A stretch of DNA of 16,685 nt from Myxococcales bacterium (GTDB lineage: Bacteria > Myxococcota_A > Polyangia > Haliangiales > Haliangiaceae): assembly GCA_043776275.1 (NCBI GenBank), contig JAYVRN010000521.1:1-16685 (forward strand), in the 5' to 3' direction. Below, in pieces: positions 5,785 to 8,774 of the stretch. The translations under genes and the position numbers were made by a program. The notes beneath the pieces are model-generated. The model saw nothing but the letters and a program-made list of their open reading frames with translations. It ran no database searches and had not been told where the DNA came from. The first letter of the stretch is position 1; each line of letters opens with the position of its first letter.

Positions 5785-6027
5785 TCAACAGACCGTGAAC
5801 GCCACCGCAGGGAACCGCGCGCACAGCGCCATGTACGCCGGATCGTCGGCTGTCAGCGCGACATCGACGTAGCTGGTCCGGATGCAGAGGAGATCCGCGA
5901 GGCCGTAGTCGATCTCGTGGATCGGCGTGTCCTCGCGAGTCACGGCGACGCCGCGCTCGACCGCGAGAGCCTCGAGCGCCGCGGCCGCGGTGAACACGGT
6001 GTCGTCGCCGGTCAGCCTGATCGTCAT
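5785..6027 (-). CDS. Small conserved hypothetical protein (80 aa), last gene of the AAA-ATPase operon
   Basis: Its ATG overlaps the stop of the upstream TPR gene by 1 nt (TGATG on the minus strand). GC3 bias is strong throughout. Sequence: MTIRLTGDDTVFTAAAALEALAVERGVAVTREDTPIHEIDYGLADLLCIRTSYVDVALTADDPAYMALCARFPAVAFTVC. The longer 162-aa ORF in the track (to 6273) overlaps the TPR gene out of frame and is not favoured. Confidence 0.5.
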   Translation of the reverse strand: MTIRLTGDDTVFTAAAALEALAVERGVAVTREDTPIHEIDYGLADLLCIRTSYVDVALTADDPAYMALCARFPAVAFTVC

Positions 6028-6959
6028 CAGTAGTCCGGATCGAGCTTGACGGTGCCGAGCTCGGACTTGAGCCACTGCCGGAACAGCTCCGGCGCGAACC
6101 AGGTGTACGCGCAGAATCCGAGCCACAGGTAGGACAGCGCCCGCGAGATCAGATCGTAGCCGAGCTCGTCGGTGACGATGATCAGCACCCGCATCAGCAC
6201 GAACGTGCCGATCAGCACGGCGATCTGGCGGTGGTCGTCTCGCATCGAGATCCAGGTGTTCCAGCGCCACCACACGCCGAGGAGCTTCGAGCGCCTCGCC
6301 TTGACCGCGGTGAACAGGCGGAGCCCACCTTCGTCGGTGGCATCCTGGTTGAGCACGAACCGCGCATGGTCCTCGGCCGCCGCGGCATGGCCCTTCGCGA
6401 GCTCCACGAAGCCCGCCACCACATGGGCATCGCGATCAGCGGCATCGCTCTTCAAGGCCAGCGCGATGTGCTCCGCGGCGCCCTCCAGATCGCCGAGATC
6501 GAGCTCGAGCCGCGCGAGCTCCGTCAGGGCGGCGGTGTGGGTGGCCTCGAGCTCGAGGGCTTCGGTGAGCAGCTCCTTGGCGCGGCCGGTGTCGCCCTTC
6601 AACACCTGGATCGTGGCGCCGAGGACGTGGGTCGTGGCGTCGGCGTTGTCCTCGTCGAGCGCGATCAGCACGTGGGCCCACGCATCGTCGAGCTTGCGCT
6701 CGGCTGTCAACACGGCACCGGCGACGTAGTGGATATACGCGTCGTTGCCGTCGAGGGCGAGCGCCGTGCGGATCTCGATCCCCGCGCCGGGCAAGCGCCG
6801 CGCGGCGAGCAAGGCGAACGCGAGGGCGGCGTGTGCGCGCGCGTGATCCGGATCGATCGCGAGCGCCTTCTGCACGAGCTCGATCGCGCCGCGGTGATTC
6901 CCGAGCCGCCGCTGAACGTCGGACTGCTCGAGCAGGACCTTGATCTGTCGGTCCTCCAT
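6027..6959 (-). CDS. TPR-repeat protein with two C-terminal transmembrane helices
   Basis: About 6-7 TPR-like helical hairpins run through the N-terminal ~220 aa, with Ala/Leu-rich periodic A..A..L patterns. Two hydrophobic helices sit at the C-terminus (IAVLIGTFVLMRVLIIV and ALSYLWLGFCAYTWFAP). There is no signal peptide, so the TPR region is predicted cytoplasmic. The start lies 1 nt after the stop of the upstream membrane-protein gene. Confidence 0.75.
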   Translation of the reverse strand: MEDRQIKVLLEQSDVQRRLGNHRGAIELVQKALAIDPDHARAHAALAFALLAARRLPGAGIEIRTALALDGNDAYIHYVAGAVLTAERKLDDAWAHVLIALDEDNADATTHVLGATIQVLKGDTGRAKELLTEALELEATHTAALTELARLELDLGDLEGAAEHIALALKSDAADRDAHVVAGFVELAKGHAAAAEDHARFVLNQDATDEGGLRLFTAVKARRSKLLGVWWRWNTWISMRDDHRQIAVLIGTFVLMRVLIIVTDELGYDLISRALSYLWLGFCAYTWFAPELFRQWLKSELGTVKLDPDY

Positions 6960-6960
6960 C

Positions 6961-7437
6961 TCAGATCCCGCCAGCGACGATGATGATCCACAGCGGATCG
7001 TCGGACAGGCCGATCACGAGCGCACGCAGGTAGTACCCCGCGCTCAGCACCGCGCTCGCCGTGCGCACGCTACCGCCGTAGTACTGGTAGACGTGGAACG
7101 TGCGATTCTGCACCGTCGAGATGTAGTAGGTCATCGTCAGCTTGAACGTGACGATGCCGAGCACGGCGAGCCGCGTGGGGATCCCCGGTGGGAGCACACC
7201 GGCGCGCACCAGCGCGATCACGATCGAGGCCAGCACGGCCGTGCCGAGGAACGCCCCGGCGACCAGCGCGAGCTCCTTCTTCTTGGTGGGGCTGCCCATC
7301 GCGATCGCGTTGAAGGCGAACCACGGCCACGACAGCCACGCCCCGGCGACCATCGCCGCCAGCAGCGGGGCGGTGGGTCGCACCACGTAGTCACCGAGCG
7401 AGGTCGAGTGGGGTTCGTCCGCGATCTGATAGCTCAT
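6961..7437 (-). CDS. Integral membrane protein (~4 TM helices, 158 aa), unknown function
   Basis: Its start (MSYQIADEP...) overlaps the AAA ATPase stop (ATGA). Four hydrophobic segments are present: LLAAMVAGAWLSWPWFAFNAIAM, LALVAGAFLGTAVLASIVIALV, LAVLGIVTFKLTMTYYI and AVLSAGYYLRALVIG. The longer 292-aa version in the track has an Arg/Pro-rich N-extension that reads as non-coding. Confidence 0.65.
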   Translation of the reverse strand: MSYQIADEPHSTSLGDYVVRPTAPLLAAMVAGAWLSWPWFAFNAIAMGSPTKKKELALVAGAFLGTAVLASIVIALVRAGVLPPGIPTRLAVLGIVTFKLTMTYYISTVQNRTFHVYQYYGGSVRTASAVLSAGYYLRALVIGLSDDPLWIIIVAGGI

Positions 7438-8774
7438 GCCTTGCCGTGCCTCTTCAAGAACTCGAGGACCTCGTCGTACTGCCCGCCTTCGTTGGAGTAC
7501 CGGGCATAGTTGCGCGCGGTGGTCAGCCACTCGATCGTGGTGGGCTTGATCTCGGCGAGCGCCGACATCAAGTGGCCTTGATCGATCGGGACCTCGGAGT
7601 TGCTCGCGAGCGAGGCCGCGATCGCGCGATCCGCCGCGGTATCGACGAGGTTCTCCAGGTCGGCACCGGAGAACCCGGAGGTCTTGCCGGCGAGGCCCTG
7701 GTGATCGATGTCGCCGTGGACGGGGCGGCCCTTGAGCAAGATCTGCAGGATCGAGGCGCGCGCCATCTTGTCGGGCGGTGGGACGAACAGCACGCGATCG
7801 AACCGGCCTGGGCGGCGGAACGCAGGATCGATCGCCCACGGCACGTTCGAGGCGGCGAGGATCAGCACGCCGGAGTTGTTCTTCACGAAGCCGTCCATCT
7901 CGGTGAGGAACTGGCTGACGAGCTTGCTGCTCGTGCCCTCGCGCGTGTGCTGGCGCTTGCCGGCGAGGGCCTCCAGCTCGTCGAAGAACATCACGCTCGG
8001 CGTGGAGGCGCGCGCCTTGTCGAACAGCGCATGCAGCTTGCGCTCGCTCTCACCGATGTACATATCGAGGACGTCCTCGATCGCCACGTTCAGGAACGTG
8101 GCCTTGACCTGACCGGCGGTGGCGCGCGCGAGCAGCGTCTTGCCGCAGCCCGGCGGGCCGTACATCAGGATCCCGCCGCCCGCCTTCTTCTTGAACTTCG
8201 CGAACAGCGCGGGCTTCTGGAACGGGAGGATGATCTTCTTCTCGATCGCGGTCTTGATCTCGGCGAGCCCACCCACGTCCTCGAACGTGATCGGCGGCGC
8301 CTCGGGGTGCAGCAGCCGATCGAGCTCGCTGCGATCCGTGTCATCGTTGGACACCACGCGTAGGCGCGGGCCATCGCCGTGTGCCTCGTGCACCGTGACC
8401 TTGGCCAGGAGCTGGAGCCGCAGGTCGCGATCCTCGAACGTGGGGTTCGCCTTCACCGCGGCCTCGTAGGCCGTGAGCGCGGCCGCCTGATCGCCCTGCG
8501 CGAGGAGCACCCGCGCCCGCACGATCTGGAGCTCGGGCTCGGCCCCCTCCGCGAACGTCAGGGCCCGCGAGGCGGCGCCCGCTCGGAGCAGCACCGCCGC
8601 CACGAACGCGCGGTCCACCGGAGCACAGCTCCCGGGCGTCAGGCGATCTGCATAGTCCGCCGCCCGCACGTCGCCGTTGGCGTGGAGGCCGCGGATCACC
8701 GCGAGTCGAAGCGCGGCGTTGTCGGGGGTCGCCGTCAGTGCCTCGAGCAGCGACCGCAAGGTTGCTTCGTCCAT
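7434..8774 (-). CDS. Classical-clade AAA ATPase, Vps4/katanin/spastin-like, with an N-terminal TPR/MIT-like helical domain
   Basis: Walker A GPPGCGKT is present. The G-x-S-E motif IGESERKL is present. Walker B VMFFDELE is present. The second region of homology ASNVPWAIDPAFRRPGRFDRV closely matches the Vps4 signature ATNIPW.LD.A.RRRF. A C-terminal helix with KPT...FG/GG resembles the Vps4 C-terminus. The N-terminal ~120 aa are Ala-rich helical repeats. Confidence 0.9.
   Translation of the reverse strand: MDEATLRSLLEALTATPDNAALRLAVIRGLHANGDVRAADYADRLTPGSCAPVDRAFVAAVLLRAGAASRALTFAEGAEPELQIVRARVLLAQGDQAAALTAYEAAVKANPTFEDRDLRLQLLAKVTVHEAHGDGPRLRVVSNDDTDRSELDRLLHPEAPPITFEDVGGLAEIKTAIEKKIILPFQKPALFAKFKKKAGGGILMYGPPGCGKTLLARATAGQVKATFLNVAIEDVLDMYIGESERKLHALFDKARASTPSVMFFDELEALAGKRQHTREGTSSKLVSQFLTEMDGFVKNNSGVLILAASNVPWAIDPAFRRPGRFDRVLFVPPPDKMARASILQILLKGRPVHGDIDHQGLAGKTSGFSGADLENLVDTAADRAIAASLASNSEVPIDQGHLMSALAEIKPTTIEWLTTARNYARYSNEGGQYDEVLEFLKRHGKA

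Follow-up and report, generated by a model that had tools for sequence, protein, structure and literature searches.

Membrane-protein quality control in bacteria is attributed mainly to FtsH, which combines ATPase, protease and membrane anchor in a single fused chain. To our knowledge, extractors of the Cdc48 or Msp1 type, whose membrane adaptors are proteins of their own, are considered to belong to archaea or eukaryotes. A bacterial pairing of an AAA ATPase with a tetratricopeptide repeat (TPR) protein carrying six transmembrane (TM) helices has been mentioned briefly, under a "VPS4-like" label transferred from archaea and with Oter_1429 of Opitutus as its exemplar (PMC11237479). This dyad was read as a "membrane-proximal complex" without known function and was listed for Cyanobacteria, Bacteroidetes, Verrucomicrobia and Nitrospirae, as well as Planctomycetes; Myxococcota and Proteobacteria do not appear in that list (PMC11237479). 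Here we analyzed a 16,685-nucleotide stretch of DNA from a Myxococcales bacterium (contig JAYVRN010000521.1, hereafter the window; G+C ~69%), which encodes a conserved unit of three genes in fixed order: a TPR-AAA ATPase of ~445 aa, a protein of ~158 aa with four TM helices (4TM) and a TPR protein of ~310 aa with two TM helices (TPR-2TM). Our literature search found no named system or functional study for this trio, the mention of the dyad being the closest. The trio is an uncharacterized three-gene variant of a barely described module of an AAA ATPase and a TPR-membrane protein.

The trio and its distinctive parts are laid out in the window as follows:

8774..7434, minus strand: gene for the TPR-AAA ATPase, first of the trio (446 aa)
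8406..8774, minus strand: TPR domain at the N-terminus of the ATPase (aa 1-123), with eight helices according to an AlphaFold2 (AF2) model and fold matches in the Protein Data Bank (PDB)
7437..7598, minus strand: extension at the C-terminus of the ATPase (aa 393-446; KPTTIEWLTTARNYARYSNEGGQYDEVLEFLKRHGKA), near-invariant in the ATPase family
7437..6961, minus strand: gene for the 158-aa 4TM protein, second of the trio, its start overlapping the ATPase stop as ATGA
6959..6027, minus strand: gene for the 310-aa TPR-2TM protein, third of the trio, after a gap of 1 nt behind the 4TM gene
6030..6050, minus strand: conserved extreme C-terminus of the TPR-2TM protein, here VKLDPDY, following V-x-L-x-x-x-[F/Y]-COOH

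The coordinates, the gene overlaps and a 210-bp gap upstream of the ATPase gene had been given in an earlier note on this DNA, and all were reproduced by direct reading of the sequence. G+C at the third codon position (GC3) is 0.89-0.93 in the trio genes and in an 80-aa open reading frame (ORF) that follows them, as is typical of coding sequence. The proteins of 158 and 80 aa had no match in Pfam, NCBIfam or PADLOC. Nor did the gene architecture have a named match in these three collections, in agreement with the earlier note. A consensus-based scan of 5500..9100 for sigma-70 promoters and terminators returned nothing beyond shuffled expectation.

Across genomes, the trio was present in ~115 loci from Kofleriaceae, other Myxococcota and Nevskiaceae, in the same order and mostly with overlapping stop and start codons. 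Orthologues of the ATPase formed more than 120 full-length clusters at 71-90% identity, the named ones belonging to Kofleriaceae. With the 158-aa protein as seed, a search through one genome for each GTDB species yielded 30 loci, all from Kofleriaceae/Haliangiales metagenome-assembled genomes (MAGs). Order and strand were kept in 29 of the 30 where the contig was long enough, the exception being the locus that we refer to as L033. More distant contexts, in which the 4TM protein is 30-45% identical (L039-L043 and L124-L126, including a Nevskiaceae MAG), carried the same trio. Metagenomes scanned with the distant 4TM sub-family added 80 loci, which encode the ATPase wherever at least ~100 nt of upstream sequence exist. 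In all related loci with sequence except L033, an ATPase gene (56-98% identical) lies directly upstream of the 4TM gene, and the TPR-2TM gene directly follows it wherever downstream sequence exists, in the metagenome loci as elsewhere; the 4TM gene invariably stands between the AAA and TPR genes. The junctions are tight as well, with overlaps of -4 or -1 nt at 43 of 65 AAA/4TM junctions and at 50 of 74 4TM/TPR junctions. The ratio of non-synonymous to synonymous substitutions (dN/dS), calculated between the window and its nearest species (L009), was 0.04-0.08 for the ATPase, 4TM, TPR-2TM and neighboring major vault protein (MVP) genes (0.078 for the 4TM gene and 0.038 for the TPR-2TM gene), indicating strong purifying selection. 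Clustering of all flanking ORFs revealed no fourth recurrent neighbor, only generic kinases or synteny within a single subclade. Of the four-gene operon originally proposed, the coupled and conserved trio therefore stands, while the 80-aa member, found in one of ~125 related loci and with a dN/dS of 1.0, drops out.

Both partners of the ATPase are membrane proteins, as had been claimed: hydropathy and AF2 helices agree on ~4 membrane helices in the smaller and ~2 in the larger. An exhaustive profile search of 1.84 billion representative sequences recovered 332 clusters (at 50% identity; E<=1e-3) of the ~158-aa family, nearly all of whose members are 150-170 aa long. Members that carry a name belong to Myxococcota/Myxococcales, Panacagrimonas and Nevskiaceae, and almost all of the distant ones are metagenome proteins; no homologue was found on a plasmid. 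When 42 diverse members were scanned against Pfam at E<=1, no recurring family emerged; the work defines an annotation-free membrane-protein family that has no Pfam model. Its members share three conserved motifs, Y-x-I-x-D-E-P (aa 3-9), WPWFxxNxxAxGSPT (aa 37-51) and QxRTFxxYxYYGG (aa 110-122), and in the 158-aa protein of the window the first and fourth TM segments are only weakly hydrophobic.

The TPR-2TM protein matches the Pfam model TPR_19 (5.6e-14) and further TPR models over aa 8-200, followed by a conserved WWRxxxW and a membrane hairpin whose hydrophobic segments lie, by hydropathy, at ~aa 246-262 and 275-289. The protein has no N-terminal signal sequence, so its TPR domain is probably cytoplasmic. 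At its extreme C-terminus, the final aromatic residue is kept by every listed family member but that of L033. This locus (8988..11379) is also the only one that encodes the 4TM and TPR-2TM proteins with no ATPase within 10 kb. We regard the aromatic C-terminal tail as a candidate peptide for docking. The conserved loops and termini of the two partner proteins, and the loss of the tail in the one locus that lacks the ATPase, suggest that partners and ATPase belong together. In the place of the ATPase, L033 has a gene for a 325-aa protein, and the same protein is encoded divergently from the ATPase in L003, L031 and L034.

The ATPase itself has a single AAA domain of the PF00004 family (Pfam AAA, 8.6e-40), followed by AAA_lid_3. 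Conserved in at least 95% of the family are Walker A (G206-T213), the pore loop M238-Y-I-G241, Walker B (D265-E266), DGF (294-296), N310 and R321/R324 within RRPGRFD, with sensor-1 and the arginine fingers among the conserved sites. Since the residues for ATP binding and hydrolysis and the aromatic pore loop are all conserved, a hexameric, substrate-threading unfoldase is to be expected. Neither Peptidase_M41 or another protease domain nor a TM segment was detected in it. The protein does not end in an HbYX motif, the family instead terminating in ...HGK[S/R/A]. Its C-terminal extension is near-invariant family-wide, and the first helix of this extension aligns with the post-lid helix of p97-D2 and of Vps4/katanin/spastin.

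The N-terminal part had previously been described as a TPR/MIT-like helical bundle, a description of which the TPR half holds. The AF2 model of residues 1-160 consists of eight short helices (mean predicted local distance difference test, pLDDT, 87; predicted template-modeling score, pTM, 0.74), and its best PDB folds are all TPR proteins, namely the TPR domain of OGT, consensus CTPR, MamA and APC/C, at query-normalized template-modeling scores of 0.5-0.58. In addition, Pfam TPR_14 and TPR_2 match weakly at aa 80-115. No MIT domain appeared among the top 50 PDB fold matches, and neither MIT (PF04212) nor Vps4_C (PF09336) matched the ATPase in Pfam at E<=0.01. Judging from the model, the N-domain is a four-repeat TPR. 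A BLASTP comparison with the TPR domain of the TPR-2TM protein, as a test of paralogy, gave nothing significant.

Relatives of this ATPase, recovered by tblastn of plasmid and large-replicon records, extend into Actinomycetota. The same ATPase family (profile scores of 343-402 bits) occurs in Nonomuraea, Actinomyces oris and several Streptomyces, with the family-specific C-terminal extension, ARNxxxYxNxxGxYDxL, and with RRPGR(F/L)D. Each of these ATPase genes overlaps a downstream gene for a TPR multi-TM protein, and the 4TM gene is absent. By hydropathy, the partner proteins have 2-4 strongly hydrophobic C-terminal segments, which is a minimum count of helices, and their TPR domains score 34-107 bits against the TPR profile of the trio. 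In RefSeq, the pair is named only "AAA family ATPase/ATP-binding protein" and "tetratricopeptide repeat protein". The four actinobacterial dyads are located at:

L127, 4995..7594: ATPase and TPR multi-TM dyad
L128, 3464..5856: ATPase and TPR multi-TM dyad
L129, 3458..5925: ATPase and TPR multi-TM dyad
L130, 3608..5976: ATPase and TPR multi-TM dyad

Taken together, we favor, with a probability of roughly 45%, a reading in which the trio is a self-contained module: a partner-tethered hexameric unfoldase at the inner membrane that acts on membrane-proximal proteins. We infer complex formation, membrane topology, docking contact and class of substrate along the following lines. The soluble ATPase, having neither TM segment nor protease, would be kept on the cytoplasmic side of the inner membrane by the two partners co-translated with it, with the TPR protein and its C-terminal helical hairpin as one tether and the 158-aa multi-pass protein as the other. 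The aromatic tail of the anchor protein, V-x-L-x-x-x-F/Y-COOH, may insert into a TPR groove, in a manner analogous to EEVD/TPR recognition or to the binding of ESCRT-III C-terminal motifs by the MIT domain of Vps4. The assembled complex could then act on membrane or membrane-proximal proteins, unfolding, extracting or disassembling them, in quality control or in the remodeling of complexes, with an activity like that of a protease-less FtsH or of Msp1/Cdc48 with membrane adaptors. A membrane-recruited disassembly or remodeling machine had been suggested in the earlier note and is in our judgment a reasonable reading; its version as a Vps4-type opener of vaults is unsupported.

Several observations weigh against this tethered-unfoldase reading. 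The AF2 model of the 4TM protein has a pLDDT of 67, and its fold matches are generic helical bundles. Counts of lysine and arginine favor an N-out/C-out topology for this protein, which would place the Y-x-I-x-DEP motif in the periplasm and therefore beyond the reach of the ATPase. The joint loss of tail and ATPase comes from a single locus, L033, inspected over 10 kb on each side. The aromatic C-terminal motif is absent from the actinobacterial dyad partners and thus is not a universal docking mode. Finally, the genomic contexts of the trio vary and give no functional hint.

The trio might instead be a chaperone that assists an envelope machine in assembly or secretion, resembling EccA or the TPR proteins found in pilus, gliding and type III systems. 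The TPR-AAA architecture recalls EccA, the TPR-2TM protein has weak, sub-threshold NCBIfam matches to PilW, GltE, Tgl, SctY and SycD, and the Myxococcota hosts are rich in envelope machines. These matches, however, fall far under the family cut-offs (50 vs 154 bits for PilW; 34 vs 467 for the EccA model TIGR03922) and therefore point to generic TPR or AAA similarity. Moreover, no secretion, pilus or gliding genes recur beside the trio, and the TonB/ExbBD genes that neighbor it in the window are kept among its closest relatives only. We consider such a chaperone role unlikely.

A further alternative is a genuine bacterial Vps4/ESCRT-like system, in which the TPR/TM proteins would replace ESCRT-III on a membrane-bound polymer. 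A precedent exists in the "VPS4-like" label of the similar dyad (PMC11237479), and the trio ATPase shares with Vps4 a single AAA domain behind an N-terminal helical recruitment domain, as well as some of its sequence characters. The motifs that had been quoted as signatures of the meiotic clade (Vps4, katanin, spastin), namely GESE, NVPWAIDPAFRRPGRFD and a C-terminal helix, are indeed all present in the protein. We compared these and other characters of the ATPase family with reference AAA proteins:

Second region of homology (SRH): RRPGRFD (AFRRPGRFDR in the window), with PG kept; common to p97, FtsH, PAN and Mpa
Inter-subunit signaling (ISS) motif: EMDGF; common to FtsH and PAN
Motif before the SRH: N-V-P-W; common to Vps4 and katanin
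Pore-loop-2 region: short; common to the meiotic clade
Post-lid helix: present; common to Vps4, katanin, spastin and p97 D2

In the alignment, VPS4B, spastin, katanin and Msp1 have a 2-residue gap where PG stands, and RPGRFD is the form found in Cdc48, FtsH and PAN. GESE occurs in p97 D1 and D2 as well. The segment KPTTIEWLTTARNYARY aligns with the helices of Vps4, katanin and spastin and equally well with p97 D2, so the C-terminal helix is not diagnostic of the meiotic clade. Only N-x-P-W remains as a character specific to Vps4/katanin, and a meiotic-clade signature is not confirmed.

Similarity scores lead in the same direction. Among NCBIfam models, the ATPase scored 215 bits with CDC48, 207 with PAN, 202 with FtsH and 164 with CdvC (archaeal Vps4), the last being 50 bits below CDC48; the first three scores lie under the family cut-offs (214.7 vs 802.65 for TIGR01243, CDC48; 202.5 vs 600 for TIGR01241, FtsH; 207 vs 500 for PAN). 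Its top PDB matches were p97 and VAT D2. In BLASTP, human p97-D2 scored highest (197 bits, 42% identity), followed by p97-D1 (171), FtsH (166), VPS4B (164), PAN (161), katanin (155), Msp1 (152) and spastin (129). The reference AAA sequences, Mpa alone excepted, were compared with PDB chains for validation. Those of VPS4B, FtsH, PAN, spastin, katanin and Msp1 aligned over their full length at ~2.1-2.2 bits per residue; p97 D2 also aligned in full, at a higher score that a second match, to D1, pushes up. In neighbor-joining (NJ) trees (200 bootstraps, 12-18 taxa), VPS4B, spastin, katanin and Msp1 grouped together at 72-76% bootstrap with the ATPase family outside, and the family formed its own clade with its actinobacterial relatives at 97%.

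The membership in the Vps4/katanin clade that the earlier note had assigned is thus contradicted by the model scores, by p97-D2 as the best BLASTP match and by the trees. On its sequence characters, the ATPase is a distinct classical-clade lineage, mixed in character and closest to Cdc48 D2, with a TPR N-domain; "Vps4-like" is not supported as a statement of family, and describes an analogous architecture. Together with the TPR fold of the N-domain and its lack of MIT and Vps4_C matches, and with the failure to detect by Pfam any ESCRT-III-, PspA- or Snf7-like gene in the inspected neighborhoods, this makes a true Vps4/ESCRT-like system improbable in our view.

Some loci place the trio in company that is not repeated elsewhere. 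In L126 (9506..12306), it adjoins genes for a CpxP-like LTXXQ protein, a response regulator of the OmpR type and a HAMP histidine kinase, an envelope-stress-like setting seen in this single case. In L043 (8449..13985), again a single case, it lies amid TIR, HEPN/MNT and HigB toxin-antitoxin genes. A separate rhomboid protease gene directly follows the trio in L042 (8462..9250) and in no other locus. An apparent TPR-rhomboid fusion at L042, called as one protein of 587 aa, was rejected: it consists of two genes, and the contig has frameshift errors that also split the AAA gene.

An anti-phage defense module, related to IetAS or to another AAA-based system, would suit the surroundings of L043 and the transposase that lies beside the trio in L126, and the PADLOC models for IetA and TRIP13 do match the ATPase at 1e-30 and 1e-18, respectively. 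These matches, however, cover the generic AAA core only, and the NCBIfam IteA model (NF042959) reached 104.9 bits vs a cut-off of 510. No IetS-like protease or other effector gene is adjacent, and most contexts consist of ordinary metabolic or regulatory genes. The spread of the trio across the Kofleriaceae/Haliangiales species loci of the 4TM-seeded scan (29/30), with ATPases 72-98% identical and the low dN/dS given above, is housekeeping-like and not patchy, and a role in defense appears very unlikely to us.

Upstream of the ATPase, the window encodes a homologue of MVP in divergent orientation:

8775..8984: intergenic region between the ATPase and MVP-like genes, 210 bp
from 8985, plus strand: MVP-like gene (Pfam MVP_shoulder, 1.5e-25, and Vault_3)

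To evaluate this neighborhood, we counted MVP adjacency over the loci in which the 5' end of the ATPase gene is complete and 1 kb or more of upstream sequence is available (n=56). MVP was adjacent in 7 of the 56 (5 distinct loci), in all of which the ATPase is at least 86% identical to that of the window, and in 0 of 48 loci whose ATPase is at most 81% identical; no other distant locus had it either. L010, on a short contig, also carries MVP. Divergent adjacency, at ~190-300 bp, was seen in the window, L009, L006/L011, L007/L008 and L010. Two close relatives depart from it, L005 (ATPase 88% identical) having a histidine kinase gene upstream in place of MVP and L012 having three unrelated genes between MVP and the ATPase. 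Within the intergenic region lie three direct TGGAGCA repeats (8856..8904, in minus-strand reading), 18 and 24 nt apart and each followed by a GTGCGC-like sequence, which are conserved in all MVP-adjacent loci. In L012, the repeats are found beside MVP (5250..5320) and not upstream of the ATPase. They probably serve MVP as a binding site for a regulator. Since the adjacency is confined to the closest relatives, and the repeats stay with MVP in L012, it represents shallow local synteny.

MVP seems to have a steadier companion on its other side. In the window, 8985..12655 (plus strand) encodes the 819-aa MVP homologue and then a 387-aa Ser/Thr kinase with a hydrophobic C-terminal region, and the same order holds in L006, L009, L011 and L012, so MVP and this kinase look like a true conserved pair. 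AAA unfoldases do take apart protein polymers, and MVP does lie divergently adjacent within the subclade of the window. Nevertheless, with adjacency limited to that subclade, repeats that travel with MVP, a constant MVP partner in the downstream kinase, and an ATPase family that reaches Actinomycetota, a phylum outside the taxa with reported MVP homologues (10.1101/872010), one can hardly uphold the suggestion of an ATPase that would open, recycle or disassemble vault-like particles and share its regulation with MVP by way of a common divergent promoter region. The trio is independent of the neighboring MVP gene: at the level of loci, it is widespread without an adjacent MVP. For vault biology, this means that the conserved partner of bacterial MVP is the downstream kinase and not this ATPase.

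On the other side of the trio, the window becomes variable:

6027..5785, minus strand: 80-aa ORF, whose start has one base in common with the TPR-2TM stop (TGATG)

Its codon-position G+C (0.67/0.49/0.889) is of coding type. The only homologue, in L009, is 70% identical at the amino-acid level, vs 96-98% for the flanking genes there, and past the stop of the ORF the window and L009 can no longer be aligned. We read this ORF as lineage-restricted and unconstrained, at the edge of a variable region, and not as a subunit; possibly, it is a gene newly arisen or in decay at a synteny breakpoint. Beyond it, two lipoprotein-like genes with signal-peptide-like N-termini (4004..5754, plus strand; 281 and 301 aa) lie between the operon and a TonB/ExbBD cluster. 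Neither had a family match. The 281-aa gene is 76% identical in L009, where its neighbors are 95-98% identical, and the 301-aa gene is missing there; by this comparison, 4004..5754 is a fast-evolving variable region. The cluster itself, downstream of the operon (55..3929, plus strand), comprises genes for a TonB-dependent receptor, ExbB/ExbD-like proteins and a TonB_C protein, and is syntenic in the closest relatives only (L005, L007, L009 and L012).

Returning to the membrane-tethered unfoldase, the strict linkage of a protease-free classical AAA to two membrane proteins under strong selection makes the trio a concrete candidate for a bacterial extractor. A more specific form of this idea, which we regard as rather unlikely but worth stating, is that the trio is an unrecognized bacterial dislocase or remodeler of membrane proteins, built as a protease-free, Cdc48-D2-like hexamer docked by the tail and by the 4TM protein. 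Such a dislocase, if real, would correspond in bacteria to Msp1/ATAD1 or to Cdc48 together with its membrane adaptors, with a simpler two-gene form in Actinomycetota. The trio is spread over Kofleriaceae, other Myxococcota and some Gammaproteobacteria, and its two-gene cousin over Streptomyces, Nonomuraea and Actinomyces.

Among known AAA systems, Cdc48/p97/VAT D2 is the best sequence match, with the M-W/Y-x-GESE pore loop, RPGR(F/L)D and the post-lid helix in common. Those proteins, however, have tandem D1-D2 domains and a double-psi-barrel N-domain, whereas the trio ATPase has one AAA domain and a TPR. Vps4, katanin, spastin and Msp1 resemble it in having a single AAA after a helical recruitment domain, N-x-P-W, the C-terminal helix and a short pore-loop-2, and the recruitment logic of Vps4, whose N-domain binds C-terminal peptides of its partners, is a plausible analogy for the trio. 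In contrast to them, the trio ATPase keeps PG and DGF and has no MIT, Vps4_C or beta-domain, and its scores against them are 129-164 bits. FtsH is likewise a classical-clade AAA with RPGRFD and EMDGF that acts at the inner membrane, but it carries its own two TM helices and M41 protease in one chain, whereas the trio ATPase is soluble and the TM segments reside in separate proteins. In EccA, from type VII secretion, a TPR domain likewise precedes a single AAA in the same chain; that AAA is of the CbbX type, and the trio has no ESX context. PAN, Mpa and Cpa differ in their HbYX-type tail and coiled-coil/OB N-domain, neither of which the trio ATPase possesses.

The dyad of PMC11237479 is the nearest relative in organization: the trio has its pair of an AAA gene followed by a TPR/TM gene, with the 4TM gene inserted, a likeness of gene order that is drawn from the published description. 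Compared with the dyads, the trio alone has the aromatic C-terminal tail, and the 4TM family bears no detectable similarity to the TM region of the actinobacterial pairs. Where the dyads join their membrane part to the TPR protein, the trio splits it, into a separate 158-aa 4TM protein and a TPR protein with only two TM helices.

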